64,000 nt of DNA from an archaeon. GTDB taxonomy: Archaea > SpSt-1190 > DYHY01. The notes beneath the pieces were generated by a model. That model was given only the letters and a program-made list of their open reading frames with translations, ran no database searches and was not told where the DNA came from. A program made the position numbers and the translations under genes. Positions 25,063 to 47,326 of this stretch are shown piece by piece. Location of the stretch: assembly GCA_037442745.1 (NCBI GenBank), contig JBBIPP010000004.1, positions 16,027 to 80,026 of the forward strand. The letters are read 5' to 3'. The first letter of the stretch is position 1. Every line of letters starts with the position of its first letter.

Positions 25063-25275
25063 TTATTTGTCTTCTTTTGATGCGCTCATTGCGAAAACAA
25101 TTAGCCCGACAATTCCTGCGGCAACAAGCCCGTATGTAATGAATTGGCCTGAGAAGTTTATTCCTTCTAGGCCGAAAATAGTTTTCCATCCGGGCGTTGT
25201 AACAACCAGAAGCAATACTATTCCAAGAGCCCCTATCAGTACCAGTTTCTTGTCAAAAATCGGTGCGTCTCCCAT
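25063..25275 (-). CDS. Small membrane protein (2 TM), distal gene of the membrane locus
   Basis: 70-aa ORF with two hydrophobic helices. Its C-terminus GLVAAGIVGLIVFAMSASKEDK resembles the C-terminus of the 179-aa protein at 25792..26331. Confidence 0.6.
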   Translation of the reverse strand: MGDAPIFDKKLVLIGALGIVLLLVVTTPGWKTIFGLEGINFSGQFITYGLVAAGIVGLIVFAMSASKEDK

Positions 25276-25281
25276 ATTGTT

Positions 25282-25301
25282 TCTCTCTCTCTCTCTCTCT
25301 C
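25282..25301. repeat. (TC)10 / (GA)10 dinucleotide microsatellite 6 nt upstream of the 25275 start codon
   Basis: Direct reading gives tctctctctctctctctctc. On the coding strand it is (GA)10-AACAAT-ATG. Confidence 0.95.
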
Positions 25302-25396
25302 CTTCATTTTGTTTTATCTACATTTCTTGACCGGCTTCGCCGGATCTCACTTCGTTCTAGTTCGGAACCTCGGATTTTCTCTCCTAGGCTCTTAAT

Positions 25397-25717
25397 TTAC
25401 TCTTTGTTCGCGTTGTTGTTAACGAAGGCATTAACAACAAGGACAATCAGGACAATTATCAGAATAACTCCGGCTTTCCCTAGTAGCCAAGACAAAAATT
25501 CACCGACAATTGGCATGCTTGCGAGGAATAGGGTTGCGACAAGGGCGGATACTGCCGAAATTGCGGCAGCAAGCCAGACTTCATCAATTACTCCGGAGCT
25601 CTTGAGGACAACGAACATCACCAAGAAAATCAGGACGAACGGCAATATTACCGAATAAACTCCCTGCTGTACTGCCTGATCAATCACTCCTTCAATTGCA
25701 TTCGCAAATAGGTACAT
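25397..25717 (-). CDS. Membrane protein (3 TM), member of the locus paralog family; start taken at ATG 25717 (ORF track gives GTG 25735)
   Basis: MYLFANAIEGVIDQAVQQGVYSVILPFVLIFLVMFVVLKSS parallels the N-termini of the other family members. GTGAGGG lies 11 nt upstream of the ATG. Confidence 0.6.
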   Translation of the reverse strand: MYLFANAIEGVIDQAVQQGVYSVILPFVLIFLVMFVVLKSSGVIDEVWLAAAISAVSALVATLFLASMPIVGEFLSWLLGKAGVILIIVLIVLVVNAFVNNNANKE

Positions 25718-25791
25718 GTTCTTTTTTTCCCTCACTTTGTTTTATCCATATTCTTTGGTTCGGAACCTCGGGTTTACGCCCATCGGCTCCT

Positions 25792-26331
25792 TTAGCTTCC
25801 ATTTGGCTTGTCGTCGCCTTTGCTCATAATTATTGCGACTAGGCCAACTAGCCCTGCGACAACTCCGACTGTCACAAGGGCGTTGTTGTCAATGTTAAAG
25901 TCCGCTCCGAATAGTATCTGCCATGTGTTCGGGCTCGAATTGAGCGCGAATACAACAAGTAGGACCGCTCCCCCGAAAATGACTAGCCCGTATTTCCACT
26001 CTTCCCCTTTTCTTATGAAATCGGTCGCGTTTTTCATGACATTGTAGACGAACATTGTTATCATCAGGGTGAACATCAGGACAATTATTGTCAGAAAGCC
26101 CTTTCCGGAGAATATTGAGAGGAAACGGCCAACCTGATAGACTCTTGCGAAATAAAGCACGAATAGGCCGAGAATCATTGAAACAATTGCGTCAATCCCA
26201 GGCTTCCCTCCGAGAATCTTCGCCTGCTGGAGTATTGCATAGATTACAAAGAACGCCAATAGGAAAGGCAGGACATAGTCGAAGAACCCCTGCGCAACCA
26301 GATTAGCTATTGTTTCGTCAACGAATGCCAT
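25792..26331 (-). CDS. Polytopic membrane protein (about 5 TM), locus paralog family
   Basis: 179-aa ORF. MAFVDETIANLVAQGFFDYVLPFLLAFFVIYAILQQAK shares the N-terminal helix plus the P-hydrophobic signature. Confidence 0.65.
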   Translation of the reverse strand: MAFVDETIANLVAQGFFDYVLPFLLAFFVIYAILQQAKILGGKPGIDAIVSMILGLFVLYFARVYQVGRFLSIFSGKGFLTIIVLMFTLMITMFVYNVMKNATDFIRKGEEWKYGLVIFGGAVLLVVFALNSSPNTWQILFGADFNIDNNALVTVGVVAGLVGLVAIIMSKGDDKPNGS

Positions 26332-26356
26332 TTTTGTATTTCATTTCCCCCATTTT

Positions 26357-26695
26357 CTATATATTATGCTTTTCCCCGTCAATATACCGCTCAATAAGGC
26401 CTCCCAAATGTATGTGCTTGGCATAGACCCGGATTGCCCATAACTCCCTCGCAATTGAGAGTAGCAAGAGGACAAAGAGCCAAGGAAAGACAAATGTCCG
26501 GAATATTGATAGAAGCTCGGTGACTCTCGAAGCTTCCCCGGAAAAGAAGGAAACAACAACCAAAATGGACAGGAGAACAGTTGCAATTGTAGATGCGATC
26601 GCCAGCCTGTCCGAACCCTCCTTGAACTGCGCGAAATTTGTGTGGGTGCCTTGTGAGCCGGTTTTTGGTTGTTTTTTTGCCATTTTATTTTTCAA
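26357..26695 (-). CDS. 2-TM protein with basic N-terminus and SFFSGEA motif; paralog of 31541..31897
   Basis: 112-aa ORF. KK-rich N-terminus, TM1 ending SFFSGEA, TM2 followed by ARELWAIRVY. Overlaps the upstream gene by 11 nt. Confidence 0.6.
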   Translation of the reverse strand: MKNKMAKKQPKTGSQGTHTNFAQFKEGSDRLAIASTIATVLLSILVVVSFFSGEASRVTELLSIFRTFVFPWLFVLLLLSIARELWAIRVYAKHIHLGGLIERYIDGEKHNI

Positions 26696-27209
26696 ACATT
26701 TTTATGTCTTTGAATTGGGACTTGCTCGGAGCATCTGAGCCCAAGAACGAGCCGATATTGTCAAGATAAGTAAGTCCAGAGTCAATTTCCATTCCTGCTT
26801 TGTTGATGTCTTGGGCGAACCGGAATCCCCATAGGAAATGCCCAATTGTCCACCAGAAAGCCATAAGAATGAATATCAGAGTCAGCATTGGTATCCAGAC
26901 ACCAGAACCGGTTGCCGAGCTTCCGAGAAAAGTCTGGAGCATCTGGACTACCTGCCAATATACCCCGAACCGAGCCCCGAAAAGGGAGAATATTATTGCA
27001 ATCCACATTGCAGTTGTTTTCCTGAAAAAGCCCATCAGATAAATAAAGTCGTAGAGAATGAAGAACATAAGGACGCCCGGCAGGATGTATGCGAAAATAA
27101 CAGTTGACATCGGACTCCCTGTTGTTCCCAAAAGAATGTTTATTATTGAGAGGACGAACCCTCCAATGTCGTTAATTACGCTAACAATTGTCCCTGCATC
27201 AAATGCCAT
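26685..27209 (-). CDS. 4-TM membrane protein, tandem copy A of the triplicated family member
   Basis: 174-aa ORF. Core residues about 26-131 are identical to copy C and differ from copy B at one residue, with a unique N-terminus and a longer C-terminal tail. AGGAGGA SD lies 7 nt upstream. Confidence 0.75.
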   Translation of the reverse strand: MAFDAGTIVSVINDIGGFVLSIINILLGTTGSPMSTVIFAYILPGVLMFFILYDFIYLMGFFRKTTAMWIAIIFSLFGARFGVYWQVVQMLQTFLGSSATGSGVWIPMLTLIFILMAFWWTIGHFLWGFRFAQDINKAGMEIDSGLTYLDNIGSFLGSDAPSKSQFKDIKMFEK

Positions 27210-28186
27210 TGTCTTTTCCTCCTATTATTTCTCACCCAATTTTTCAAGCCGTGTCCCAATTGTCTTGAGTAAATGAAGTGCAGCCCCCTGTTTGTGCTGT
27301 TCGGTTGCGACTGCTTGAGCGAACCGGAATCCCCATAGGAAATGCCCAATTGTCCACCAGAAAGCAATCAAAATGAATATCAGAGTCAGCATTGGTATCC
27401 AGACACCAGAACCGGTTGCCGAGCTTCCGAGAAAAGTCTGGAGCATCTGGACTACCTGCCAATATACCCCGAACCGAGCCCCGAAAAGGGAGAATATTAT
27501 TGCAATCCACATTGCAGTTGTTTTCCTGAAAAAGCCCATCAGATAAATAAAGTCGTAGAGAATGAAGAACATAAGGACGCCCGGCAGGATGTATGCGAAA
27601 ATAACAGTTGACATCGGACTCCCTGTTGTTCCCAAAAGGACGTTGATTATTGTTAGCAAAAACCCGCCAATATCGTTCAGAAAGCCATTTATTGTCCCAG
27701 CATCCAATGCCATATCTTCTTTCTCCTTTTATTTAGATCCCAATTGTTCTAGACGGCTTCCAATCCTGTCAAGAACACCGATTGCACTCTCTATTTTGTC
27801 GCTTTCCTTGTAAACAGCACTGGCAAACCGGAATCCCCATAGGAAATGCCCAATTGTCCACCAGAAAGCCATAAGAATGAATATCAGAGTCAGCATTGGT
27901 ATCCAGACACCAGAACCGGTTGCCGAGCTTCCGAGAAAAGTCTGGAGCATCTGGACTACCTGCCAATATACCCCGAACCGAGCCCCGAAAAGGGAGAATA
28001 TTATTGCAATCCACATTGCAGTTGTTTTCCTGAAAAAGCCCATCAGATAAATAAAGTCGTAGAGAATGAAGAACATAAGGACGCCCGGCAGGATGTATGC
28101 GAAAATAACAGTTGACATCGGACTCCCTGTTGTTCCCAAAAGGACGTTGATTATTGTTAGCAAAAACCCGCCAATATCGTTCAGAA
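26817..28186. repeat. 504-bp-period tandem triplication with near-identical core blocks (about 26817-27134, 27321-27682, 27826-28186)
   Basis: The blocks are identical by eye except for a few substitutions (GCCATAAGAATG vs GCAATCAAAATG). Identity stops abruptly at both flanks. Antisense shadow ORFs are near-identical in all three copies. Confidence 0.9.
27225..27713 (-). CDS. 4-TM membrane protein, tandem copy B
   Basis: 162-aa ORF. Core near-identical to copies A and C (one substitution), own C-terminal tail AVATEQHKQGAALHLLKTIGTRLEKLGEK. AAGGAGA SD upstream. Confidence 0.75.
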   Translation of the reverse strand: MALDAGTINGFLNDIGGFLLTIINVLLGTTGSPMSTVIFAYILPGVLMFFILYDFIYLMGFFRKTTAMWIAIIFSLFGARFGVYWQVVQMLQTFLGSSATGSGVWIPMLTLIFILIAFWWTIGHFLWGFRFAQAVATEQHKQGAALHLLKTIGTRLEKLGEK

Positions 28187-28217
28187 TGCTTACGAATGTC
28201 CCCGAATTTATTGCCAT
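27729..28217 (-). CDS. 4-TM membrane protein, tandem copy C
   Basis: 162-aa ORF. Core identical to copy A, own C-terminal tail AVYKESDKIESAIGVLDRIGSRLEQLGSK. Two TATA-like boxes lie in the 158-bp upstream spacer. Confidence 0.75.
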   Translation of the reverse strand: MAINSGTFVSILNDIGGFLLTIINVLLGTTGSPMSTVIFAYILPGVLMFFILYDFIYLMGFFRKTTAMWIAIIFSLFGARFGVYWQVVQMLQTFLGSSATGSGVWIPMLTLIFILMAFWWTIGHFLWGFRFASAVYKESDKIESAIGVLDRIGSRLEQLGSK

Positions 28218-28375
28218 TTTCTCTTTTCTCCTTTTTTGATTATTTATTCGGCCAGTTCCCTTTATTTTCTCTTTCTAGCATTTATAGTTTGCCGATTTAA
28301 GGGCAGTGTCCAAATAACAGCAACCCCAAAATCCTTAATGGTATTACCACTCGATAATTTATATAGTTTCCCATC

Positions 28376-28936
28376 TTATTTGAACTTGCTGAAAGCTGGA
28401 GCCCAGCCAGAACTTCTCTCAGCCTTTTGGGAATTGACAATTGACTGCTTGTTTGAGCCCTCCCTGTTCCCGAGCCGTGCAGCAGTCTGACCAATCAGGG
28501 TCAATATCTGCCCGCCCCCCGAGAGCTCAGCCAAGCCCTTGGAAGCTGCCCTGGCAGTGACAAACCCTATGAAGAAATTGCTCATGAACCAATAGACAAT
28601 CACGAAAGTGAAGACTGTTATGAACATTGCAATGAATAGTCCTGTTTCCCCGAAAATCGGCTCTAAAAAGAGGGAGTTAACGAATGTGTTATAGTCGTCA
28701 TAAAATCCGAAATGGGCGAACATTAGGGCGAAGACCGCAGCCATTACTGTTGCGGTTATTTTCCTGAAAAACCCCATCAGATAGAAGAGGTCTTCCAGCG
28801 TGAAAAAGACGAGGAGCGCAGGAATTGCATAGAGGAAAATTATCTCATACCAAGGCTGTCCCTTGCCCCCGAAAATCATGTTGAAAATTGTCCAGAAGAA
28901 TTCCGGGACATTGAAATAAAGTTCCTCTCCTGCCAT
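28376..28936 (-). CDS. 4-TM membrane protein, diverged paralog of the triplicated genes
   Basis: 186-aa ORF. AIPALLVFFTLEDLFYLMGFFRKITATVMAAVF aligns with ILPGVLMFFILYDFIYLMGFFRKTTAMWIAIIF. Tail contains ILTLIGQTAARLG. Its ATG overlaps the stop of the upstream 632-aa gene. Confidence 0.7.
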   Translation of the reverse strand: MAGEELYFNVPEFFWTIFNMIFGGKGQPWYEIIFLYAIPALLVFFTLEDLFYLMGFFRKITATVMAAVFALMFAHFGFYDDYNTFVNSLFLEPIFGETGLFIAMFITVFTFVIVYWFMSNFFIGFVTARAASKGLAELSGGGQILTLIGQTAARLGNREGSNKQSIVNSQKAERSSGWAPAFSKFK

Positions 28937-30774
28937 TATTTGTTCCCCCCGAATTTCGAGCCCAAGTTCCTGAAGAATCCGCCAATCGAATTCTTTGCCG
29001 CCCCCAGCACTCCTGCTGGAACAACCCCGATGTCCTTGTTAATGTTGGCGTATTTCCACTTTTCCTGCTGGTTAGGAGTCATGGTTTTTCCTTGCCAAGG
29101 ATTCACCGACTTAATCCGGGTTGTCCAAGAGTCTTTTGCCTTTTCAACAGAGCCACCTATCTCGTCAGTAACATCCCCGAACTTGTCTTTTCCTTTCGAG
29201 ACTTTCTGGGAAATCTTGCCATATGCGCTCGTGCTCTTGATCATTCCGAGGATGAATTTTGGAAGAACGGTTACTGGGAGAGTGAGATAGAGGAAAAGCA
29301 CCCTTATTCCGATTGAAGTCACTATAAGGAGAAGGTAGAAGAGCGCGGCAACTATTGCGTTCATGAAGAGGTCCAGTGGGTTTGCTGGGACGGCTGTCCC
29401 TGAAAGGGGTTTTGCCAAGGAAACAATATAGAGGGTTCCCAAGAACTGGAATGCGAGCCGAATAAGGGAATTTAGGACAGGTATTGGTCCTCCGTTGAAG
29501 GGCAAAAGTATCCAAATAACTACTGGTCTTGGAAGGAAGACTGCCAGGAGAAAGACAGACTTTTCCACAGCGAATGCGACAATCTGCCACATCCAGAACG
29601 CCCAAAAAGTCGCGGGGATTATTGATGCCCAGATGTTGACGCAGCTCGTCGGCTCCCTTACCGGAATATATTCGTAATAGGACGCAATTCCGAAAATATT
29701 CATGCTTGTTGCAAAAGCCACTACAAGAAGAAAGATCCACACATATCCGAGCTCAATTACTGAAAATGCCCTGAAAACGTCGTATATTGTGGATTTTATA
29801 GCTTCCCTTCCGGCAATGGCGCCCTTCTTCGCTCGGAGGCGCTCTGACGCGTCATTGCTTTTGCTTGCGCCGTCACCGGCGCCTCCGGCAACTCCTCCCA
29901 TCAGCCGATCGTCAACTCCGGGAATTCCGGTAGATTTGTCCAAGAACTGGTCGGCAAGATGCGTTGCTTTCTGGACGAAACTGAGCTCGTCATAGTCGCT
30001 GTCCGCAGTTGCCGCGACATCGAGAATTCTCGAGTATTCAGTATCTCCTATTGTGCTTTGGATTACTTCCTTTGCAAATGTTGCCTTCCAATTGTCCGGC
30101 TCGAGGAATTCTTTTTGCAAGTCCTCCGGAGGAGCGGCAAGGGTCTCGAAAAGTATTATCAGGAAAAGAATCCATCCGAAAAGAATCCATGCGGCAATGT
30201 TTGTCGATAGGGTGAATATCACAAAAAAAAGCGCAGCAACTATCTTTATCCAAGACGCATTTTTGAAAGCGAAACGCCCTAGAATCATCAGGACAATCCC
30301 GATTCCGAGGAAAACATAAGAGAGTTCTTTGCTCACATTTATTAGGGGCCTGTCATAATCCGGTCCGCACGCATTCTCAAGCTCGTTTTCCGAAATCCCA
30401 TAGCTCTCGACAACCCTCGGGCCAAAGTTCTCCGGCGGTTTAGCTGGCAGATTGTCCCATTCCCTTGCGGATTGCGTTATCTGCCCGAAAAGTGGGGCAA
30501 TTCCTTTGTCCCAGAATGTCTGAAGTATGCCAAAGAAGCTGTTGTCGCCTACCGAAGAAAAGTCGAGGCAAAGGCCGGTTGTTGTGCAGGATTCGGGGGT
30601 TCCTCCCGTAAGGCCGGACTCTCCGGAAGGATCTCCCCCGTCAATCGGGGAAAGAAGAGGGTCCTCTGAGAATGCCGGGGCAGGCGAAAGAGCAAGAATG
30701 AAAACAAGGGTTAGGATGGGGAAAATTTTCCAAATGCTCGAGAATTCCCATCTCATTTTCCGGGAAGCCCCCAT
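28936..30774 (-). CDS. Large polytopic membrane protein (signal peptide, 8-9 TM, ~120-aa soluble loop, hydrophilic C-tail); start taken at M21 of the 632-aa ORF
   Basis: The ORF runs 28936..30834. ATG 30774 lies about 29 nt downstream of a TATA-like box. Signal-like WKIFPILTLVFILALSPAPAFSEDP, multiple long hydrophobic segments, C-tail KNSIGGFFRNLGSKFGGNK. Confidence 0.75.
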   Translation of the reverse strand: MGASRKMRWEFSSIWKIFPILTLVFILALSPAPAFSEDPLLSPIDGGDPSGESGLTGGTPESCTTTGLCLDFSSVGDNSFFGILQTFWDKGIAPLFGQITQSAREWDNLPAKPPENFGPRVVESYGISENELENACGPDYDRPLINVSKELSYVFLGIGIVLMILGRFAFKNASWIKIVAALFFVIFTLSTNIAAWILFGWILFLIILFETLAAPPEDLQKEFLEPDNWKATFAKEVIQSTIGDTEYSRILDVAATADSDYDELSFVQKATHLADQFLDKSTGIPGVDDRLMGGVAGGAGDGASKSNDASERLRAKKGAIAGREAIKSTIYDVFRAFSVIELGYVWIFLLVVAFATSMNIFGIASYYEYIPVREPTSCVNIWASIIPATFWAFWMWQIVAFAVEKSVFLLAVFLPRPVVIWILLPFNGGPIPVLNSLIRLAFQFLGTLYIVSLAKPLSGTAVPANPLDLFMNAIVAALFYLLLIVTSIGIRVLFLYLTLPVTVLPKFILGMIKSTSAYGKISQKVSKGKDKFGDVTDEIGGSVEKAKDSWTTRIKSVNPWQGKTMTPNQQEKWKYANINKDIGVVPAGVLGAAKNSIGGFFRNLGSKFGGNK

Positions 30775-30797
30775 ATCTGTCTTTTTTAGCTCTTTCC

Positions 30798-30844
30798 AAT
30801 ATAAATAATGTCTCCCGAGTGGGAAAATTGGCAAAGTATAAAAG
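30798..30844. promoter_or_regulatory. Back-to-back TATA boxes of the divergent membrane-locus operons
   Basis: AATATAAATAAT (30798-30809; reads ATTATTTATATT on the minus strand, about 29 nt from ATG 30774) and GTATAAAAG (30836-30844, about 34 nt from ATG 30874). Implies leaderless or short-leader mRNAs. Confidence 0.45.
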
Positions 30845-30873
30845 TAAGATTTTCCCGAGAGTCCCAGTCAAAC

Positions 30874-31524
30874 ATGGCGAAAGGCAGGGGATTATTTTCA
30901 AGAATTGCCGGGCGAAAGGGGGAAGGCGACAACGATGTTTTCATGTATGCTTTCATTGTTGTCTTGCTGGTTGCTGTAGGGACTTATGCAAGCAATTCAG
31001 GTGTCGGAGGGGTTTTTTTCAGCGCAATTAACAACGCATTTTCCAAGCTCGGTCTGCTTACTTCCTCCTCGTGCCCTTTCTATAGCAATGTTAATACTGC
31101 CGCATGGGCGTGCATTGTTGTTTTCGGGATAATCCCATTCATTATTGTCTATTACTTTACATTTGATGCATTGAGCTTCACTTTCATGACAACGCGGACA
31201 AAGGGAATGCTTTCCCTCGGAGTTTCAATGATTGCAACAGTTCCAATGAACGGACGCTCACTTATTGCGAGCCTCAGCGCTACTCTTGAGCAGTTTACAG
31301 TACTGCTCCTTCCTCCAATTGGTCAAGGAGGACTTGGTAACTGGGGCGGATTCCTTGCAATAATGCTGATAATGGCGCTTATTTCAGGTTTCTTGGGTCA
31401 GCTTGCTCTTACTTCCCAGATGGCGAATGCAGCAGTCCTGTCCCTGCAGGAGACAATATGGGGATACAGGGCAATGAACCAGATAGGAAAAGCGGTTACT
31501 GCGACTGGAAAGAAAGAAGGTTAG
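30874..31524 (+). CDS. Polytopic membrane protein, locus paralog family; start taken at MAKGRG (ORF track gives 30808)
   Basis: IIPFIIVYYFTFDALSFTFMTTRTKGMLSLGV matches the family signature. The C-terminal tail AMNQIGKAVTATGKKEG shares the IG-tail motif. Confidence 0.65.
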   Translation: MAKGRGLFSRIAGRKGEGDNDVFMYAFIVVLLVAVGTYASNSGVGGVFFSAINNAFSKLGLLTSSSCPFYSNVNTAAWACIVVFGIIPFIIVYYFTFDALSFTFMTTRTKGMLSLGVSMIATVPMNGRSLIASLSATLEQFTVLLLPPIGQGGLGNWGGFLAIMLIMALISGFLGQLALTSQMANAAVLSLQETIWGYRAMNQIGKAVTATGKKEG

Positions 31525-31540
31525 GGAGCAGTTTCCTGAA

Positions 31541-31897
31541 ATGGCGCCCGCAGTGAAAAAAGGGGAAAAGAAAAAGCCCTTTGAGACTGCATCAATTTCC
31601 CTTTTTCTCGAGCATCTGGACGGCTTTCTTTTATCAGTCCTCAAATACGTCCTCTCGGCAATCCTCCTTTTCTCCCTTGCAATTGCCCTCTATTCATTCT
31701 TCTCCGGAAACGCATGGTCCGACTTTTCAGTTACGCAGGCCGGAGCGAACACAATTTCCGCGGTTGTCGCCCTTTCGTTGATAATTTTCTGGAGGGAGCT
31801 ACGGGAACTCCGGCTCTGGCTTGAGGGAATGTCAGAACACCATTCAAGGCATACTTATTCCCGCTTGGATTATTCCGCAAAAAGGAAGGGGGCATAA
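31541..31897 (+). CDS. 2-TM protein with basic N-terminus and SFFSGNA motif; paralog of 26357..26695
   Basis: 118-aa ORF. KKGEKKK N-terminus, TM1 ending YSFFSGNA, TM2 followed by WRELRELRLW. Confidence 0.6.
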   Translation: MAPAVKKGEKKKPFETASISLFLEHLDGFLLSVLKYVLSAILLFSLAIALYSFFSGNAWSDFSVTQAGANTISAVVALSLIIFWRELRELRLWLEGMSEHHSRHTYSRLDYSAKRKGA

Positions 31898-32646
31898 TGC
31901 CAGTTTTTTCTCTCGGGAAATTGGAGAAACTGCAGTTCGTTTCACTTGCCTTGCTTCTCCTCCTTTTGGCTCCTGCACATTCCGCCACTTCGGGCGCCGC
32001 GAACACAGATCTTGTTTCAAAAGGAAGGGGCTTTGCGGACGAGCTCTTTGGCCCGATGTTTGCGCTCCTTGAGCCTTTCGGATTTGGGGCGAACAACCAG
32101 TATTCAATGATCCAATTCCTTGCAGCATTCACGCTGATATTCTTCCTTGTGAAGGAAATTACGCCCGGAACCTCTGACTTTGCCGCATTCATTGCAACAA
32201 TGCTAGGAGCTGGCGCAATAAACTTCATTTTCCGGCTGGACTGGTACACTTTCTTGATACATTTCTCCCCTGCTCTCCTGATGTTTTTCTTCCTTCAGGA
32301 CATCCTCGCTAGGTTCTCCTTCATGTTCCGGAGCACGGCCAAATGGATTGCCCTCTTCGGAATGATTCTTGTCTTCTACACAGACTATGCGCTCTTCACT
32401 GACAACGGAATTTTTGGATTTTTCTTCAACAAACTGTTCGGGGAAGGGTATTCGTTTTTCCTCGAGCCTTGGTCAATAATACTTTTCGCGCTTCTTGCGA
32501 CTCTTGTGCGGATGTTCGGTCTCATTGAGAAGGTCTTCAAGTCTGAGAGCGCTAACCAATACAGGTACCAGATGCAGGCGGCAGTGAACATTATTCAGCA
32601 GGAAGTTGTAAAGGGAGGAATGAAGGACCTTGCAAAGAAAAAGTGA
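31897..32646 (+). CDS. Secreted/polytopic membrane protein, locus paralog family
   Basis: 249-aa ORF. Signal-like LALLLLLLAPAHSATSG. SPALLMFFFLQDILARFSFMFRSTAKWIALF matches the family signature. ATGA-type overlap with the upstream gene. Confidence 0.7.
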   Translation: MPVFSLGKLEKLQFVSLALLLLLLAPAHSATSGAANTDLVSKGRGFADELFGPMFALLEPFGFGANNQYSMIQFLAAFTLIFFLVKEITPGTSDFAAFIATMLGAGAINFIFRLDWYTFLIHFSPALLMFFFLQDILARFSFMFRSTAKWIALFGMILVFYTDYALFTDNGIFGFFFNKLFGEGYSFFLEPWSIILFALLATLVRMFGLIEKVFKSESANQYRYQMQAAVNIIQQEVVKGGMKDLAKKK

Positions 32647-32679
32647 GGTTTTTATTCCGGAACAGGAGGGCGTCTTGCA

Positions 32680-33291
32680 ATGGACCTAATAATCCTCATA
32701 ATAACCTTGGTCTGCCTAACTACAATAATAAAGCCATTCACATTCCCCGGAGACAGCAATTTCGAGGACGCTTCGTCAACTCTAGCCATTTTCCTCGGAA
32801 TCCTCGCCTATTTCTACGGAGTCGATTTCTTCCCGGCAACCTCGTTTTTAGCGCCCCTCCACATTATAACAATAGGCCTGGTGAACGCATTTTCAATAAT
32901 AGATCTTTTCATACTGACTATTCTTGGAACCCCCCTGACACTGAACCTCATTTTCGTTGTAATAGTCCCCTCAATGGTTGTCTATAAGATTGCAAAGGAG
33001 CTCTTCTCATATACGGAGATACTCTCAAAGACAACCGAGAACTTCATTGCATCAATAGTCGCTTTCATCTCAATGGTTGCGGCAGTCAGGGGCGACTTTA
33101 ACCTGATTCAGATTGTCTGGAGCGCTCTCACATATTTGGTGAGCTATGTTACCGGTCAGAGCTCATTATACCTGATGACTGTCTCAATAACGGTTATTTC
33201 GGTAATTGTTCTTGCAGTTGCCATTGCATTCGAGACAATGACTGTCAAGTTCGTCCTTCTTCTTTCTAACGGTTCCGCAGAAGCAGAATAG
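32680..33291 (+). CDS. Polytopic membrane protein (about 6 TM), distant locus family member
   Basis: 203-aa ORF. IVPSMVVYKIAKELFSYTEILSKTTENFIASIV resembles the family signature. Confidence 0.65.
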   Translation: MDLIILIITLVCLTTIIKPFTFPGDSNFEDASSTLAIFLGILAYFYGVDFFPATSFLAPLHIITIGLVNAFSIIDLFILTILGTPLTLNLIFVVIVPSMVVYKIAKELFSYTEILSKTTENFIASIVAFISMVAAVRGDFNLIQIVWSALTYLVSYVTGQSSLYLMTVSITVISVIVLAVAIAFETMTVKFVLLLSNGSAEAE

Positions 33292-33423
33292 ATTTAGAAC
33301 TATTCTTAGGCCTTTAATAAAATAACACATCATTTGGCCTTTGTAAAGACAATAAAAAGAAAACTTTAAAAGCAAGATTGAATATATTACTATTAAATAA
33401 CAAAAAAGGATTGATGATGAAAA

Positions 33424-33966
33424 ATGGCAAAACCTGAAAACGCACGTGAGTTGTGGGGGGAAATGTTCGTTAACAATGAGGGTATAATTAAGAGGTATGT
33501 AAATGATCTTGCAAACTCAGCCAAAGAGTTTCCTTATTATGGAGGTTTGGCGGGATTTTTGGGAGAAGGCGCTTCAAGAATAGGCAAGGCAGTAAGTTCT
33601 TATGCAAGAGGTCCTGTGGCAGCTAAAAAGCCGGCAGAAGGGCCGGCAGAAGGGCCGGCAGAAGGGCCGGCAGAAGGGCCGGCAAAAACCGATGACGGCC
33701 CAGGCGGAGACGTGAAGACTCTCGGCTATAAGGAGATACTTAATCGCCTTGAGGAACTTGCGAGGGGGCAACAGAATTCTCCTTCCATCCCGTTCACTGC
33801 GAAAACTCCCGCTAGTTCGCTCTACAAACCCCAACCGAATGAACCTTCAAAGCTAAATAAGGGACTGGAATATCTGGCGTTTGTTCTTGGCCCGGACTTT
33901 GAAAGTTATGTTCCCCAGCTAAATGATCTCGGAGCACGTGGAGTTATAAAGACGTACCCAATCTAA
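33424..33966 (+). CDS. Soluble hypothetical protein with (PAEG)4 repeat, last gene of the plus arm
   Basis: 180-aa ORF with no TM segment, preceded by a 130-bp AT-rich spacer containing TTTAAAAG. Central AEGPAEGPAEGPAEGPAK. Confidence 0.6.
   Translation: MAKPENARELWGEMFVNNEGIIKRYVNDLANSAKEFPYYGGLAGFLGEGASRIGKAVSSYARGPVAAKKPAEGPAEGPAEGPAEGPAKTDDGPGGDVKTLGYKEILNRLEELARGQQNSPSIPFTAKTPASSLYKPQPNEPSKLNKGLEYLAFVLGPDFESYVPQLNDLGARGVIKTYPI
33631..33684. repeat. Perfect 12-bp tandem repeat (CCGGCAGAAGGG) x4 plus a partial copy, in frame
   Basis: Direct reading. It encodes PAEG x4. Confidence 0.95.
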
Positions 33967-40849: not shown

Positions 40850-42196
40850 TTATTCTACCTTTTCAATTTCATCAGGTGTGGCAACGCTCTCCTTGACTTC
40901 GTCAAGCCTTTCCTGCCTTGTCTTGTCTTTTGCAATTTGCTGTTTTTTCTGCTGTTCCGAGGGCTTTCCTTTGGAATCAGCAGGTCCGGGTTTCCTCTTG
41001 AATTTCTTTGAGATTATTATCCCTCCGACAACTCCCGCTCCTAGAAACAGGCCGACCAATCCCCACATTCCCATTTTCTTCAGACAATCGTTTGAGCATT
41101 CCCCGAGCTTTGTTTCGCATCTGGTCACCTGCTCCTGCATTGTTGTTTTGGTGTCAGAGAGAGCCTTTTCATATGATGCGGTCGTGTTTGCGAGGTCGCT
41201 TTTGAGCTTACTGGCTTCGGAAAACCATGTTCTGTTCCCTTGGTCGAGCGCAATGTTCTTCGACTGCAGATCAAGGACCTTTAGAGCAAGTTCGGAATCG
41301 CTCTTTAGTGTGATCTCCCGGTTTCCGGTGTCCGAAAGCCAGTTGATTATTGCTAGCCCGAACTTGTCGTTGTTTATTGTCTCGTTGAAATAGTCCCGGT
41401 CATATATGTTGGCGTCGGAGAGTATGTCAAAATCGGATATTACGACTACGGCTCCGCTTCCGAAAAATGCCCGCGCCGCAATCGGTGGTTCGCTTCCCAC
41501 AGGAAATGTCCCGGTTTCAGTGTAGGAAAGGTTGCTTCCGGTCGCAATTACCTTCGTTTTTCCGATTGGGGAATTCACTCTCACTGACTCGACAAAAAGG
41601 GGGTGCGCCTTGTATACTGCAATTTTGTTGACATCCGAGAGGCTTATGCCTTGTGGGTCTGTTTTGTCGGGAAAGTTCCTGACAAGGGCATAATATTTTC
41701 TGTCCTCAACGGGAATTGCGACCCCGTCCGGCCCAGTCTCGTTGAAAGGGAAATTGGCAGTGTCGACAAGCCAAGTTGTCCTCTTGTCCATCAATATTCC
41801 GTAGATTTGCCCTAGATTGTTGACTCCCTCCGGCTCGTCCCCGTTAATCAGGAGGCCTCCCCCCCTCACCCCTACATACCATCTGAGAGCAAGGATTTCT
41901 TCAGTGTCAAGAGCCTTGTTTAGCCCCTGCATTATCACGACATCATAATCGACAAGCTTTTCTTGGGTTAGTTTGACGTCAGAACTGCTGATTGAAGCAG
42001 TCGAATATCCAGCCCCCTGGAGGAGCGCGTTGAAGCGGGTGTATCCGCTCGATGTTATTCTCATTGTTGTCGCTGCTTGGACCTCATAGAAGAGGACCTT
42101 TTTTCCGCCTGTCGAGAATCCCGGAAGAACTAGGATAATTGCGAAAATAACTGCGAAAACAAAAGCAACCTTGAAATTTCCTTTTCCTAATGACAT
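40850..42196 (-). CDS. Surface protein: signal/anchor, globular ectodomain (DUF4350/GldG-like impression), helical stalk, C-terminal TM, basic tail
   Basis: 448-aa ORF. N-terminal hydrophobic VAFVFAVIFAIILVLPG, DVVIMQGLNKALDTEEILALRWYVGVRGGGLLINGD, C-terminal MWGLVGLFLGAGVVGGIIISKKFKRK. Confidence 0.65.
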   Translation of the reverse strand: MSLGKGNFKVAFVFAVIFAIILVLPGFSTGGKKVLFYEVQAATTMRITSSGYTRFNALLQGAGYSTASISSSDVKLTQEKLVDYDVVIMQGLNKALDTEEILALRWYVGVRGGGLLINGDEPEGVNNLGQIYGILMDKRTTWLVDTANFPFNETGPDGVAIPVEDRKYYALVRNFPDKTDPQGISLSDVNKIAVYKAHPLFVESVRVNSPIGKTKVIATGSNLSYTETGTFPVGSEPPIAARAFFGSGAVVVISDFDILSDANIYDRDYFNETINNDKFGLAIINWLSDTGNREITLKSDSELALKVLDLQSKNIALDQGNRTWFSEASKLKSDLANTTASYEKALSDTKTTMQEQVTRCETKLGECSNDCLKKMGMWGLVGLFLGAGVVGGIIISKKFKRKPGPADSKGKPSEQQKKQQIAKDKTRQERLDEVKESVATPDEIEKVE

Positions 42197-42335: not shown

Positions 42336-45300
42336 ATGTGTTTGGAAACGGTGGCAGAAAGAAAACTCTCTTTCTTAGGGATTTCCTTATTTTTAGCCCT
42401 TAATCTGTCCTTGTTGTCGTTTTCCCTATTTTCCGGCTATTCCGCCTTTGAAATAACCCTCATTTATCCGGAAAATCTCTTCTGGACGAATCTTGACAAC
42501 TTCTCATTGAATTTCACTTTCAATGCTACTAGCGACATCGATTCCGGAGGAGTGTGCTCCCTATATCTCGGAGATGCGGTTGTCGGGACAGTCAATGCGA
42601 CGAACTCGACTCCCGCAAACATAACTTCAGTGGCAGCGTTTTCTCAGGGGAACAACACTTGGCTAATATCCTGCACGAACTCGACAACTGAGAACTCTTC
42701 TGTTTCGATTTTCAGGTATGATGGTGTTGCGCCTGCCGTCTCTTCTCTTTCTCCAGCAGTTTCATATTCCACAGCAGTCAATGAAACAAATTTTACTGGA
42801 CAGGCAACTGACGCATTTACAATCTTCTCGCTTTCATTGTGGGGCAATTTCACCGGAACTTGGGCCATGAATTCCTCCAACATCTCATATTTGAACGGAG
42901 CCAACTGGACAGTTTCCCCGGGCGCTCTGAGCGAAGGAGTCCATCTCTGGGCGTTTTTTGCGAACGATTCTGCAGGTAACGGGAATTTTTCAGAGAACAG
43001 GACGCTTGTTTTCGACTATACTCCCCCAACCAATTCCCCACTCTTCCCGGACAACCAGTCTTTCAAGAGTTCTGCCCTCCCCAATTTCTCATTTGCAGTC
43101 TCTGATGCGCTCTCCGGAGTCTCCTCATGCAGGGCGCTAATTGGGAACTCGACAGCTAACTATACCAATTCGACAATTTCTCCATCCCAAGGCTGGTGCA
43201 ACTTTACCAACTTTTCCCTCTCAGGCCTCCAAAGCGGGCAATACGCCCTTTTCTTCAAGGTCAACGATTCCGCCGGAAACGAGGCTTGGAACAGCACAAT
43301 TTCACTGAATGTCGACGACATTGCCCCCCAAATCTCCTATGTAATCCCGAACAACACAATTTTCCTCTCGAACGCATCATTTACAATTTCCTTCGGCGAA
43401 TCAGCGAACCTCTCCTGGATTGCGAATTCGACTGGAAACATCACCAACTCTACCGGTGAATCAATCTCAGTCAATTCCCACCTTCCCACAGGAAACTACC
43501 AATGGACTGTTTTCGCAAGGGACTCTGCCGGAAACAATAACAAGACAACATTCAATTTCACTGTGAACCGCACTAGGCCGTTCGTCAATTCAACCATTCC
43601 AGCTGACGGCTATTATACGAACGATTCCACAGTCAACTTCACTTTCAATGTGACTGAGGAAACAAACTCCTCAATGTATTGCGCAGTCCATCTCGACGGC
43701 GTCCTTAACGCGACAACCGCGAACTCCTCAGTCCTGAACAACACTCTTACAACAATATCAATTCCGGGAATTGCTTTCGGTTACCACACCTGGCGGGTTT
43801 CCTGCGCTAACTCTGAAAACACAACCTATTCGGAGACCAAGGATTTCGATGTGAGGAATGTCAACGCTTCATCTCTCGATTTTCCCTCATATGTCCCACG
43901 GAACAAGGTCGTTTACCTGAATGCGTCCGTCCTAGCTTTCAAGAATTCGGAGAACGTTACCCTCTCAGTCTCCCTTCCATCAGGATTTTCAATTCTTTCG
44001 AACATAACTGATGCCTCCAACTGGACAGGTTCAGCGTCAGTCTGGAACTCTGCCATTCCATCTGGAAGCTCCCTTTGGCTCAATCTGACAATCCTTGTTC
44101 GGAACAACGCGTCTCTTGGGAGCTCTTCAATAACAATAACTGCCAACTCTTCCGAAGGGCACGGAGTCTCAAAAAAGCTCTCTTTCTCAGTTCTCCAGCC
44201 ATCATCTAACCTGACTTTCTCTCCGGCCCAAATCAACCTGACTGCCGAAAAATCAGTCAACCTAACTCTTCCGAACAACGGAACTGGGAATATCACCTCA
44301 TTCAATCTGACATTCAATCCAGCTTATTTCAACATAACGAACGCCTACAACCTCTCCTCCGGGTGGTTCTGCAACCACGCTTCCTTCTATCTGAACTGTT
44401 CCGGAGGTGGGATTGTCCAAAATTCGTCCGCTCTCTTCAACCTCTACCTGAAAGCCGGGACATCTGATGGAAACTCCACCGGGACAGTCCATCTTTACGA
44501 CTCCCTCGGCGGGAATTCTACTGTGAACTTCTCCGCCCCGGAAATCCTGAAAATTGGGGTTGTTTCCTCCAATTCGACAAGGACCTTAACTAGGAACGAA
44601 ACAAACTCAAAGTCATTCACCCTGAATTTCACGAGCACGGGAATTCTTACGCCGAACACTTTCAACGGGACATTCTCGCCAGTCAATTTCACCTCGCTTA
44701 ACGTCACCGGATATGGGGGGAACCTGACTTGCTTCAATTCAACTTCAACATCCCACCCTTCCGCCCCGAACACTTCATTCTACTGCAACGGAACATCCGG
44801 CTATGTAACTTTCCGCTTGACAGCGAACTCCTCCGCTCTCGGGATAACTCAGGGGGCTTTTGTCTCATCAAACGAAACTACTTCAAGCTTCGCGCTCGAC
44901 CCGCTCAATTTCACAATCCAAAAGGCTCCGGAAGTGACAATCTTAATTGACGCGAGCCCGACATCAGTCTCAATCGGAGGTTCCACTGCCCTATTGGCGG
45001 AGATAATAAACTGCTACGGCTCGTCCTATTGCGCAAACATCGTGAACGCTGCCGCAACCTGGAGCGTTATTTCCTCGAGCGGGACATGCTCCAGCACATT
45101 CACAAATCCTTCCTACTACTTCAGTCTCGAATCAAGGACGCCCGAAAATACGACAGTTGAATACAACACAGGCCAGCAGACAAAGGCGGTCGCCTCGGTT
45201 GCGAGCACCTGCATTTACACAATGTCATTCACCGGCCTTGACGCGAACACGGGGGCGAACGTCACATCAGTTTCCGTCACCACAAAGACAGTCACTGCGG

Positions 45301-46274
45301 TGAATTCGACGACAACTACGACCGTTGCTCCGGAAAACCCCTCAATTCCTCCGGTCGTTTCAACCCCAACCCTTTCCCTCACACTCTCACCTACATCCCT
45401 TGCTGTGACAAAGGGTACTTCAAGGACAATAACCGCGACAGTCCGGCTTACCGGCCCTTCCCTTTCCACTGCGCTCTCCCTTTCGGCGAACGAGACTGGC
45501 ATATACGCAATATCAATCTCCCCTTCTTCGTTTTCAAGCATATCTAATGCAACTTCCCGGAGCTTTACAATAACTTTGACTGTTCCCTCCACAACAGCCA
45601 CGGGCTCAAGGGCTGTGAAATTCACCGCAACCTCCGGCTCTTACTCGGCGAACGCTGTCCTGACTGTCCTAGTTCTCGATAGTTCGACAGCTGGGAACCA
45701 GACTGTCAATGCAACGAACAGCTCAGTTTCCGATTCAACTGCGAACAATACAAATTCTTCAGGGGGCGGGTCATTGGTGGCGAACGTCACAGCGCCGAAT
45801 ACCACAAAGGAGCTTGAAAGCGCGCTTCTGAAATTGGGCCTTCTTTCAAAGGAGCTAGGCGCCTTCAGCCTAGAGGGCGAGAACACCACAATTGCGAGCG
45901 AGCTTGTCCTGAATGCGACTGAACTGCTGAAAAAGGCCTCGGACGCCCTCCTTCGGGGGAACATGTCAGAATACGAATGGTTCCTCTCTGCTGGAAAATC
46001 GGCGCTCTCCAAGGCAAGCGCGCAGGTATTCTCAATAAAGGTGAGGCGGGCGTGGCCAATACTCCTCTATTCATTGGGAGCAGTCCTCTTGATTGGCCTT
46101 GTATCTGCAGGAGCATATGCAATTCTCTCTGGAAAGCAGGCAATTCTTCCGAAAAGAGCGACAGTTGCCGGAACGAAAAAGGAGATTACCTCAGTTCTCG
46201 AAGAGTTTTCAAGCGAGATAAAAGAGCCCTTGGAAAAGAAGAAAAAGGCGAAAGATGAAGGGAGGTCTTTGTAA
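42336..46274 (+). CDS. Giant surface protein (S-layer/adhesin-like) with repeated beta-sandwich-type modules, very many N-x-S/T sequons, helical stalk, C-terminal TM anchor
   Basis: 1312-aa ORF. N-terminal signal anchor, recurring DSAGN...D..P module ends (ANDSAGNGNF, VNDSAGNEAW, ARDSAGNNNK), C-terminal WPILLYSLGAVLLIGLVSAGAYAIL plus a charged tail. Confidence 0.85.
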   Translation: MCLETVAERKLSFLGISLFLALNLSLLSFSLFSGYSAFEITLIYPENLFWTNLDNFSLNFTFNATSDIDSGGVCSLYLGDAVVGTVNATNSTPANITSVAAFSQGNNTWLISCTNSTTENSSVSIFRYDGVAPAVSSLSPAVSYSTAVNETNFTGQATDAFTIFSLSLWGNFTGTWAMNSSNISYLNGANWTVSPGALSEGVHLWAFFANDSAGNGNFSENRTLVFDYTPPTNSPLFPDNQSFKSSALPNFSFAVSDALSGVSSCRALIGNSTANYTNSTISPSQGWCNFTNFSLSGLQSGQYALFFKVNDSAGNEAWNSTISLNVDDIAPQISYVIPNNTIFLSNASFTISFGESANLSWIANSTGNITNSTGESISVNSHLPTGNYQWTVFARDSAGNNNKTTFNFTVNRTRPFVNSTIPADGYYTNDSTVNFTFNVTEETNSSMYCAVHLDGVLNATTANSSVLNNTLTTISIPGIAFGYHTWRVSCANSENTTYSETKDFDVRNVNASSLDFPSYVPRNKVVYLNASVLAFKNSENVTLSVSLPSGFSILSNITDASNWTGSASVWNSAIPSGSSLWLNLTILVRNNASLGSSSITITANSSEGHGVSKKLSFSVLQPSSNLTFSPAQINLTAEKSVNLTLPNNGTGNITSFNLTFNPAYFNITNAYNLSSGWFCNHASFYLNCSGGGIVQNSSALFNLYLKAGTSDGNSTGTVHLYDSLGGNSTVNFSAPEILKIGVVSSNSTRTLTRNETNSKSFTLNFTSTGILTPNTFNGTFSPVNFTSLNVTGYGGNLTCFNSTSTSHPSAPNTSFYCNGTSGYVTFRLTANSSALGITQGAFVSSNETTSSFALDPLNFTIQKAPEVTILIDASPTSVSIGGSTALLAEIINCYGSSYCANIVNAAATWSVISSSGTCSSTFTNPSYYFSLESRTPENTTVEYNTGQQTKAVASVASTCIYTMSFTGLDANTGANVTSVSVTTKTVTAVNSTTTTTVAPENPSIPPVVSTPTLSLTLSPTSLAVTKGTSRTITATVRLTGPSLSTALSLSANETGIYAISISPSSFSSISNATSRSFTITLTVPSTTATGSRAVKFTATSGSYSANAVLTVLVLDSSTAGNQTVNATNSSVSDSTANNTNSSGGGSLVANVTAPNTTKELESALLKLGLLSKELGAFSLEGENTTIASELVLNATELLKKASDALLRGNMSEYEWFLSAGKSALSKASAQVFSIKVRRAWPILLYSLGAVLLIGLVSAGAYAILSGKQAILPKRATVAGTKKEITSVLEEFSSEIKEPLEKKKKAKDEGRSL

Positions 46275-46276
46275 AA

Positions 46277-47326
46277 ATGGATTCTATTGAGAAAAAAGCC
46301 CCGCACACATTCTCAATTATATCTGGAAAGGGCGGGGTCGGAAAGACGACAGTCACATCCAACCTTGGAATTCTTCTGGCCTCGGAGTTCGGAAAAAAGG
46401 TTCTTGTTATTGACGGAAACATCAGCACAGCGAACCTCGGGATACATCTGGGCTTCATAAAGTGCCCTGTCTCATTCCAGGACGTCATTGACAAGACAAT
46501 AAAGACTTACCAGGCGGTTTATGTCCACAAATCAGGGCTTAACATAATTCCGGCCTCCCTTTCAATGGAGCACGAGCAGCACGACTATCCGGCGAACCTT
46601 CTTTCAAAAAGGATACAAAAGATTGTCTCAGACGTCAAATTGCACTATGACATTGTCCTGATTGACGGAGCAGCGGGGATTAGCGGAGAGGCAAAAGCCG
46701 CGATTTCCGCGAGCGAATCAGTACTGGCAATAACTGTTCCGGAAATTCCGACAGTCACCGCCACAATAAAGGTTGTCGAGACTGCAAAAGAGCTAAAAGT
46801 CCCTGTTTTCGGGATTGTAATGAACCGCGTCAGGGGGGGAAAAATCGAGGTTTCAAAAGACGAGATAGAGCGCCTCTGCAAAGCAAAGGTAATATGCATT
46901 GTCCCGGAGGATGAGGCTGTCCGGGAGAGCACGTCCCATAGGGAGCCTGTCTCGGTCATACGGCCAAACTCGGCGTCAGTCAAGGAGCTCAGGAAGCTTG
47001 CGGGGAAAATTGTTCTGGCATCCGAAGGAAAATCAGAGGATTGTCCGGCGCCAAAGCCGAAAGGAAAATTGTTATTCGGGATTTTCGGGAAAAAGAGGGT
47101 GGCTCCGGAAAATTTGCTTCTCTCACAGGGAAACGATAAAAAGGCGCAATGGGCTCTAGCTCCCTCTCAAGGAAGCCAAAAGGAGGGCAGGGAGTCAGAG
47201 GGGGATCAGATAGAGTCAGGGCATAGCAGGCCCGCGAAATCGGACCCTAGGAAAGACAAGGAAAATCCGGGGAAAATTGATGGAAAGAAAGGATGGTGGT
47301 TTTGGTTTTTTGGGCGGAAGAAATGA
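46277..47326 (+). CDS. minD: MinD/ParA-family P-loop ATPase with long disordered C-terminal extension ending in an aromatic-basic tail
   Basis: 349-aa ORF. Deviant Walker A SGKGGVGKTT, LIDGAAG Walker B region, C-terminus KKGWWFWFFGRKK. Starts 2 nt after the upstream stop. Confidence 0.85.
   Translation: MDSIEKKAPHTFSIISGKGGVGKTTVTSNLGILLASEFGKKVLVIDGNISTANLGIHLGFIKCPVSFQDVIDKTIKTYQAVYVHKSGLNIIPASLSMEHEQHDYPANLLSKRIQKIVSDVKLHYDIVLIDGAAGISGEAKAAISASESVLAITVPEIPTVTATIKVVETAKELKVPVFGIVMNRVRGGKIEVSKDEIERLCKAKVICIVPEDEAVRESTSHREPVSVIRPNSASVKELRKLAGKIVLASEGKSEDCPAPKPKGKLLFGIFGKKRVAPENLLLSQGNDKKAQWALAPSQGSQKEGRESEGDQIESGHSRPAKSDPRKDKENPGKIDGKKGWWFWFFGRKK

Follow-up and report, generated by a model that had tools for sequence, protein, structure and literature searches.

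The question raised by the locus at positions 25063-33966 of the window analysed here, a 64,000-nucleotide stretch of an archaeal genome (contig JBBIPP010000004.1 of assembly GCA_037442745.1, positions 16,027 to 80,026), is what a group of adjacent genes does when nearly every product is a membrane protein and, as far as the searches described below indicate, no described family claims any of them. A reading of the sequence alone (the sequence-only reading) had seen in it an undescribed envelope apparatus, a dedicated set of membrane genes and not a scattered collection. Comparison with related loci (L001-L005, L008-L011, L013, L015, L017 and L019-L023) bears out a dedicated, co-inherited set: genes of one family, A, in one to six copies, are followed, in some loci by way of the small gene m112b, by the genes B-long, B-short and m70, an order that is complete in 12 other loci and is cut by contig ends in the remainder. 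The protein identity of this cassette across loci ranges from 20 to 97%, and the order is kept down to 20-30%. The conserved products are all integral membrane proteins without an enzymatic domain, as judged by Pfam and NCBIfam scans and by hydropathy. Because the gene order is conserved at such low identity, the genes are coupled, the products are all membrane proteins and the subunits are paralogous and rich in helical hairpins, we propose that the locus encodes one envelope-associated, hetero-oligomeric multi-subunit complex of a new kind, a reading to which we give about an even chance of being correct. Whatever the locus does, at least three of its membrane-protein families, A, B and m70, are new.

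The locus holds 14 open reading frames (ORFs), nine on the minus strand and five on the plus strand, all present at the coordinates listed below, and transmembrane (TM) segments are predicted by hydropathy in 13 of the 14 products, the exception being the 180-amino-acid (aa) p180. The 13 genes counted in the sequence-only reading are thus real, but the number has to be given as 14 ORFs (9 + 5), 13 of which encode membrane proteins. Two gene starts were corrected from ortholog alignments and gene calls in relatives. The 632-aa ORF m632, listed as 28936-30834 on the minus strand, most likely begins at Met21 or Met27, giving a predicted product of 606-612 aa whose N-terminus is a Sec-type signal peptide ending ...APAFS|ED, and the 238-aa ORF p238 (30808-31524) most likely starts at 30874 to encode a 216-aa protein, p216. 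The two operons diverge, as had been described, from a spacer with TATA-like elements at ~30799-30809 and ~30837-30848, the length of which, first given as ~100 bp, becomes ~118 nt since the starts of m632 and p238 were corrected. TAATG-type stop/start overlaps are found at 28936 and 31897, and between the tandem copies there are 15-nt spacers carrying AAGGAG, in agreement with the tight coupling proposed earlier; with 1-nt overlaps and such spacers, the cassette genes are translationally coupled. The features of the locus are the following.

25063-25275, minus strand: m70, 70 aa, two hydrophobic segments, with T-T/S-P-G-W as an invariant motif in the loop
25397-25735, minus strand: B-short (m112a), ~106-112 aa, three hydrophobic segments, with G-[FVI]-[FY]-x-x-x-L-P-F as a motif near the N-terminus
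25792-26331, minus strand: B-long (m179), 179 aa, with ~5 hydrophobic segments and an N-terminal half homologous to B-short
26357-26695, minus strand: m112b, ~108-112 aa, a basic N-terminus followed by 2 hydrophobic segments
26685-28217, minus strand: three tandem family-A genes of 174 aa (26685-27209), 162 aa (27225-27713) and 162 aa (27729-28217)
28218-28375, minus strand: 158-nt gap upstream of the tandem A array, with TATA-like elements (ctatataaat, ctataaatg)
28376-28936, minus strand: m186, family A, 186 aa, 34% identical to the tandem copies
28936-30774, minus strand: m632, with an N-terminal ectodomain containing conserved Cys, ~8 hydrophobic segments and, at the C-terminus, a basic tail with a final IG/LG motif
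30775-30873, neither strand: divergent spacer with two TATA-like elements, the gene starts being those from orthologs
30874-31524, plus strand: p216, family A, with orthologs of 203-216 aa in L001-L004
31541-31897, plus strand: p118, a basic N-terminus followed by 2 hydrophobic segments
31897-32646, plus strand: p249, family A, with a signal-peptide-like N-terminus, an ectodomain of ~90 aa and orthologs in L001-L004
32680-33291, plus strand: p203, polytopic, with ~6 hydrophobic segments and orthologs in L001-L004
33424-33966, plus strand: p180, soluble, with PAEG repeats

The start of m186 shares 1 nt with the stop of the gene before it, and the start of B-short likely lies at the ATG at 25717. 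The TATA-like elements in the gap between m186 and the tandem array suggest that the tandem A copies may have a separate, possibly stronger, internal promoter. Orthologs of m70, the last gene of the conserved cassette, occupy the same position in L003, L005, L008-L011, L013, L015, L017 and L019-L023, and those of m112b are found in L003, L004, L005, L008, L013, L015 and L023; homologs of m632 occur only in L001-L004 and L023.

How far the arrangement is shared, and in what surroundings, separates the invariant parts of the locus from the variable ones. B-long, B-short and m70 are always single-copy, whereas the number of family-A genes varies from locus to locus. The full divergent arrangement, including the p216-p118-p249-p203 operon, is found in the window and L001-L004. 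Clade I, comprising the window, L001-L005, L008, L013, L015 and L023, adds m112b and also carries m632 upstream where the contig extends far enough, and clade II (L009, L011, L017 and L019-L022) has two A genes with long ectodomains and is without m632. In the window the locus is flanked by NAD(P)HX dehydratase (nnrD), a CxxCxxCC protein and GT2 on one side and by DUF357, diphthine synthase (dph5) and Trm5 on the other; the nnrD/CxxCxxCC/GT2 flank is common to the window and L005, and the dph5/DUF357 flank is common to the window and L003, a locus in which protein identities to the window fall to 20-45% and diphthine synthase is 50% identical. Clade II adjoins a tRNA-splicing endonuclease. The GC content of the cassette and its GC at third codon positions (GC3) equal those of the flanks, and the metagenome-assembled genomes (MAGs) that carry it are labelled by NCBI as Candidatus Altiarchaeota (two), 'Candidatus Micrarchaeum sp.' (one) and 'archaeon' (one). 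Assemblies with the cassette include GCA_030622515.1, GCA_018220955.1, GCA_053993315.1 and GCA_043803745.1. Relatives therefore do keep a conserved gene neighbourhood around these proteins, set among housekeeping genes, and from these comparisons the cassette appears to be chromosomally and vertically inherited and specific to a narrow group of uncultivated archaea.

The products had been described as members of one expanded paralog family, and paralogy was assessed by BLASTP and by profile-profile comparison (hhalign) of ortholog alignments. Six genes, encoding products of 174, 162, 162, 186, 216 and 249 aa, form one family, A, an assignment that is robust, with internal BLASTP E-values of 1e-26 to 1e-102 and hhalign probabilities against family A, which like all those given here can be inflated by composition between TM proteins, of 97.5-98% for p216 and 95-96.5% for p249. 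Family B consists of m179 and m112a (hhalign 98% to each other) and is probably a distant relative of family A, the corresponding values against family A being 86% for m179 and 41-86% for single B-short orthologs. B-long looks like B-short fused to an m70-like unit, because its N-terminal half matches B-short and its C-terminal part resembles m70 (hhalign 61% for m179 residues 121-175, with SSPxxW..FG in the former and TTPGWK..FG in the latter). In addition, p118 and m112b may be paralogs (44%), p203 appears weakly related to family A (51%), and m632 shows no detectable relationship to the other products. A single expanded family is thus an overstatement: it holds for the six A genes, is probable for the 179/112-aa pair, weak for the 203-aa product and not supported for the 632-aa one, and the sequences are better described as two or three families plus unrelated large proteins. 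The helix-loop-helix signature quoted in the same connection reflects real homology without being a sharp motif, since a strict regular expression picks out nothing in the window beyond the three tandem copies.

Family A is represented by 34 sequences (E <= 1e-3) among 1.84 billion cluster representatives, and its six members in the window share a core of ~3 TM segments, as estimated from hydropathy and AF2 helices, followed by a tail. The core carries the pattern P-x9-D-x8-R-x2-T across TM1 and the following loop, and the C-terminal helix carries L-x-x-I-G. Residue conservation was read from alignments of 12 members and of 32 representatives; in the latter, Pro44 (28/32), Asp54 (26/32), Arg63 (26/32), Thr66 (29/32) and Gly153 (27/32) are near-invariant, and the C-terminal IG motif noticed earlier is recovered in the 12-member alignment, in which L149, I152 and G153 are near-invariant. 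An AF2 model of a 162-aa family-A protein (pLDDT 73) is all helical, with helices at residues 5-27, 34-59, 64-80, 83-95 and 105-161, the last of which, 57 residues long, runs from TM3 into the C-terminal tail. The N-terminal regions of the family vary from 22 to 322 aa. Signal-peptide-like N-termini are present in 22 of the 32 representatives, and many homologs continue from a Sec-like signal peptide into 20-300 extra residues; the Cys counts of these ectodomains are mostly even, and one subclade has Asp-rich D-x-[DN]-x-D-G loops. The window's own copies have short, uncharged N-tails. The signal peptides of homologs, the uncharged N-tails and an Arg/Lys loop after TM1 together point to a topology in which the N-terminus lies outside, TM1 runs out to in, TM2 in to out and TM3 out to in, leaving the tail in the cytoplasm. 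Class III (prepilin) signal peptides are absent from the products, as had been noted, their N-termini being either Sec-type (A-x-A or AFS|ED) or uncharged tails.

The three tandem copies of family A have evolved as a mosaic. Their core (nt 61-395) is 98-99% identical in DNA between paralogs and only ~83% identical to the L005 orthologs, and both ends differ, being 76-93% identical between orthologs (L005) and 38-80% between paralogs. Because the ends are orthologous across genomes and copy-specific, the triplication is older than the split between the window and L005 genomes, and the TM core is homogenised by gene conversion within each genome, with the outward N-terminal end and the cytoplasmic tail kept specific to each copy. 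Such a pattern, a homogenised core with copy-specific ends, would be expected if all the cores have to be accommodated at a single shared site while the ends serve different purposes; whatever the function, it is a clean example of mosaic concerted evolution. Archaellin and type IV pilin arrays offer a parallel, in that their tandem paralogs evolve in concert by gene conversion with copy-specific regions kept, and vary in copy number beside single-copy 'platform' genes. The cassette differs from them in its polytopic products and lack of class III signal peptides. Neither a PilB/FlaI ATPase nor a FlaJ/PilC platform gene was found in the window, there was no T2SSE Pfam match among the cluster and the larger flanking ORFs scanned, and no homolog of a T2SSE-family ATPase that stands near the cassette in L003, and only there, was found anywhere in the window.

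Searches for known homologs gave a consistent picture. Pfam and NCBIfam scans of all products found no ATPase, transporter, peptidase or other domain, which upholds the earlier statement that such motifs are lacking, and no match was found in Pfam scans of 32 family-A representatives and 7 B-long orthologs, nor at E < 0.5 in sequence-profile searches of the PDB with family A, m632, B-long and B-short. Foldseek comparison of the family-A model with the PDB and BFVD returned no match at E < 1, and its top matches, chains of SctR (E = 1.6-8.5, probability <= 0.18, TM-score ~0.3), are not significant. A search of 10 products against the PADLOC models of known anti-phage defence systems gave no match at E <= 0.01, and GenBank phages, PLSDB plasmids and IMG/VR likewise held no match. 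The one database match obtained, that of p216 to the PHROG family phrog_21437 ('membrane protein', E = 3e-5), was set aside after a search with 32 family-A members in which not one gave it again. A word-index search for homologs of m632 found close relatives only. In the absence of any confident profile match placing the products in a characterised system, the description of the family as new stands.

In the proposed complex, the products of the locus would be subunits of one hetero-oligomeric assembly in the cytoplasmic membrane. B-long, B-short and m70 would form its invariant core, to which m112b and m632 would be added in the clade of the window, and family-A proteins would dock onto this core in variable number. 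That they may be exchangeable subunits is suggested by the single-copy core standing beside multi-copy A genes with variable ectodomains and a homogenised TM core. Their N-terminal parts, from a few residues to ~300 aa long, would face outward and present different ectodomains. The complex would be inserted by the Sec pathway and would have no dedicated NTPase, and would for that reason act by assembly alone or by means of an ion gradient, the near-invariant buried Asp of family A being a candidate for a role in the latter. At the cell envelope it might be a platform for anchoring or scaffolding, or else a channel presenting different ectodomains. We infer the physical co-assembly, the topology and the envelope function of the products, and several points weigh against this proposal. 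Both m632 and the plus-strand operon are absent from clade II, because of which the system may be a small four-gene core with lineage-specific additions. The relationships between subunits lean in part on hhalign values open to the compositional inflation mentioned above, the topology is derived from hydropathy, the positive-inside rule and the signal peptides of homologs, and the AF2 model of m632, built from an alignment of 4 close sequences, has a pLDDT of 35 and is unusable for a fold search.

What the complex would mean for its hosts depends on which of these roles applies. To our knowledge, no machinery for the assembly, anchoring or energy coupling of the Ca. Altiarchaeum envelope has been identified. 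That envelope has two membranes, with grappling-hook filaments spanning both (PMC4460559), and the cassette is a compact, syntenic and lineage-restricted candidate for such machinery, with modular, surface-exposed subunits. If it is a lineage-specific channel or scaffold, its value lies mainly in annotation.

Several other explanations of the locus were weighed against the multi-subunit complex. Its layout most resembles that of Ced/Ted and of the FliPQR export gate, and none of the features tested as marks of either was found. A channel or transporter for a solute or macromolecule, in which small helical-hairpin subunits would surround the large polytopic m632, is unlikely. In its favour, every subunit is a membrane protein, m632 and p203 being of the polytopic kind, and the paralogous subunits, with B-long resembling a joined B-short and m70, recall FliP-FliQ-FliR (SctR-S-T), the export gate of the type III secretion system (T3SS), which is also encoded by consecutive coupled genes for paralogous small helical-hairpin proteins including one fusion-like subunit. 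The SctR chains that head the Foldseek list are, however, statistically meaningless matches (E > 1, TM-score ~0.3), no Pfam match of the products and no significant Foldseek match of the family-A model points to FliPQR, none resembles a Pfam or NCBIfam transporter family, the cassette is without FlhA/FlhB-like partners or an ATPase, and half of the loci with a preserved core cassette lack m632 and p203; archaea are not known to have a T3SS. Unlikely, too, is a transducer or stator-like complex driven by an ion gradient, an analog and not a homolog of MotAB, ExbBD-TonB and TolQRA, in which the Asp of family A would carry protons or Na+ and ion flow would be coupled to envelope work through the long helices in the cytoplasm and the variable domains outside, for example across a double membrane such as that described for Ca. 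Altiarchaeum. MotA, ExbB and TolQ share with the cassette a membrane-only constitution without an ATPase (neither the locus nor the window has one, save a MinD/ParA-like gene 12 kb away), a conserved intramembrane carboxylate, Pro and Thr (Asp54, Pro44 and Thr66 are near-invariant inside or beside TM1/TM2) and TM helices that reach far into the cytoplasm, as TM3 does in the ~57-residue helix of the AF2 model, and carrier MAGs bear the label of Altiarchaeota, a group with a reported double membrane (PMC4460559). The cassette differs in carrying its Asp in the multi-TM subunit itself, and homology is found neither by Pfam, with no MotA_ExbB match, nor by PDB profile, nor by Foldseek, in which ExbB, TolQ and MotA do not appear although their structures are in the PDB (best E 1.6); moreover, the conserved Asp-Arg pair may be a mere structural salt bridge. 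A wider form of this idea, which we hold to be rather improbable, is an ATPase-independent, ion-gradient-coupled cytoplasmic-membrane platform of Altiarchaeota-type archaea whose A subunits reach outward to anchor, assemble or energise structures beyond the cytoplasmic membrane; these might be surface filaments (hami, for example) or the outer membrane, as described for this lineage. If true, this platform would be a functional analog of Ton/Tol/Mot invented independently in archaea.

That fast-evolving, lineage-specific membrane proteins are adjacent merely by shared ancestry and tandem duplication, with no joint function, is decidedly unlikely; orphan membrane proteins are common in uncultivated archaea (PMC9258230) and part of the locus is plainly a tandem duplication, but in two clades the gene order has outlasted a fall in identity to 20-30%, amid neighbouring genes that differ from locus to locus, and overlapping stop/start codons have been maintained. 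A highly diverged descendant of a type IV secretion system (T4SS), with A or B as VirB2/VirB3-like and m632 as VirB6-like components of a DNA-exchange apparatus or a conjugative-type pilus, is very unlikely. The model for it would be Ced/Ted, T4SS-derived DNA importers of Crenarchaeota composed of VirB2-like CedA1/TedC, VirB6-like CedA/TedA and VirB4-like CedB/TedB (PMC9905601), which are also chromosomal archaeal clusters of small helix-pair membrane proteins, some with Sec signal peptides, beside a larger polytopic protein, and so are alike in general layout (PMC9905601); in the cassette the large protein has a signal peptide. The large Ced subunit holds a region homologous to the small one, as B-long holds B-short and m70-like parts, Ced and Ted components are mutually without recognisable sequence similarity (PMC9905601), and a DUF87/HerA-type ATPase lies directly upstream in the distant locus L009. 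That ATPase is not conserved with the cassette, no VirB4/HerA ATPase being found in the window or in the sister loci of L009, L011 and L022; profiles of A, B-long, B-short and m632 have no match among PDB sequences, which include CedA1, TedC, VirB2 and VirB6, and Foldseek of the family-A model yields no pilin or VirB match, so that neither sequence nor fold similarity to T4SS components was detected. Family A, moreover, with ~3 TM segments, a long cytoplasmic helix and many copies with variable ectodomains, is not a two-helix pilin. An origin as the membrane module of an integrated mobile element or virus, an option raised earlier, is extremely unlikely, and this covers plasmids and domesticated remnants of such elements as well. 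The cluster does consist of orphan genes, L023 has a toxin-antitoxin pair within it, and p216 has the single weak PHROG match (E = 3e-5), but 0/32 family-A members match that family, no match was found in GenBank phages, PLSDB plasmids, IMG/VR or BFVD, and the locus has no integrase, flanking tRNA or repeats. The chromosomal position is constant, with the same housekeeping neighbours in genomes whose diphthine synthase is only 50% identical, and composition, which had been put forward as a check of mobile origin, shows GC and GC3 no different from those of flanking genes. Neither a T4SS-like origin nor a viral or mobile one is supported, since the cassette has no conserved ATPase, no integrase and no anomaly of composition, and no known family can claim it.

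Among the neighbours of the cassette, two ATPases were considered as components and rejected, because the window lacks both and neither is kept from locus to locus. The DUF87/HerA-Zot ATPase of L009 (3836-5089, 417 aa), directly upstream of the A genes, is missing from L011, L022 and the window, where tblastn with it found nothing, and the T2SSE-family ATPase of L003 (11880-14147, 755 aa), divergent from a coiled-coil gene pair, was seen in no other locus, and the window has no counterpart of it. The only Walker-A/P-loop ORF in the 64-kb window is the MinD/ParA-like gene at 46277-47326. The coiled-coil pair, CC1/CC2, is absent from the window and in nine other loci either adjoins the cassette or is two genes away; CC1 has ~110-127 aa, and CC2 has ~145-260 aa with a VGAQIKAMQ motif and a Pro-rich linker. 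Neither has an informative Pfam or PDB match, and the pair may be a cytoplasmic partner or simply ancestral synteny. Its positions are the following.

L003, 10599-11764: CC1/CC2 pair
L010, 2487-2924: CC1/CC2 pair
L011, 12411-13400: CC1/CC2 pair
L017, 2879-3244: CC1/CC2 pair
L019, 4379-5026: CC1/CC2 pair
L020, 2543-3545: CC1/CC2 pair
L021, 6668-7625: CC1/CC2 pair
L022, 10117-11107: CC1/CC2 pair
L023, 5313-6714: CC1/CC2 pair

In L023 the cassette is intact except that the toxin-antitoxin genes, a PIN/MazE pair at 1756-2477 on the other strand, are inserted between its family-A copies. Clade II loci (L011 6763-7440, L021 950-1660) have, upstream of the A genes, a gene for a conserved single-pass protein whose signal peptide is joined by a Cys-rich ectodomain and a basic tail, KKKKYY; this protein may be a clade-specific accessory subunit. 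Elsewhere in the window, at 42336-50828, two very large ORFs flank the MinD/ParA-like gene, one of 1312 aa with a Big_13 Ig-like domain and one of 1183 aa without a Pfam match, and may be genes for surface proteins; further large ORFs without a Pfam match lie at 40850-42196 (448 aa) and 61384-63924 (846 aa).

Within the locus itself, p180 probably lies outside the system. Its membership is doubtful because the sequence upstream of it is AT-rich and separate from the rest, and because conservation stops at close relatives, with L003 and L004, the syntenic loci at greater distance, lacking it. Its PAEG repeats are encoded by a perfect 12-nt tandem repeat (4.6 copies) at 33630-33684. At the other end of the locus, the spacer between B-short and m70 is 121 nt long (25276-25396) and contains a small GC hairpin (ccggcgaagccgg) and, directly before the ATG of m70, a (GA)10 run; the same spacer is only 17 nt long in the close relative L005, and the two genes overlap in most other loci.

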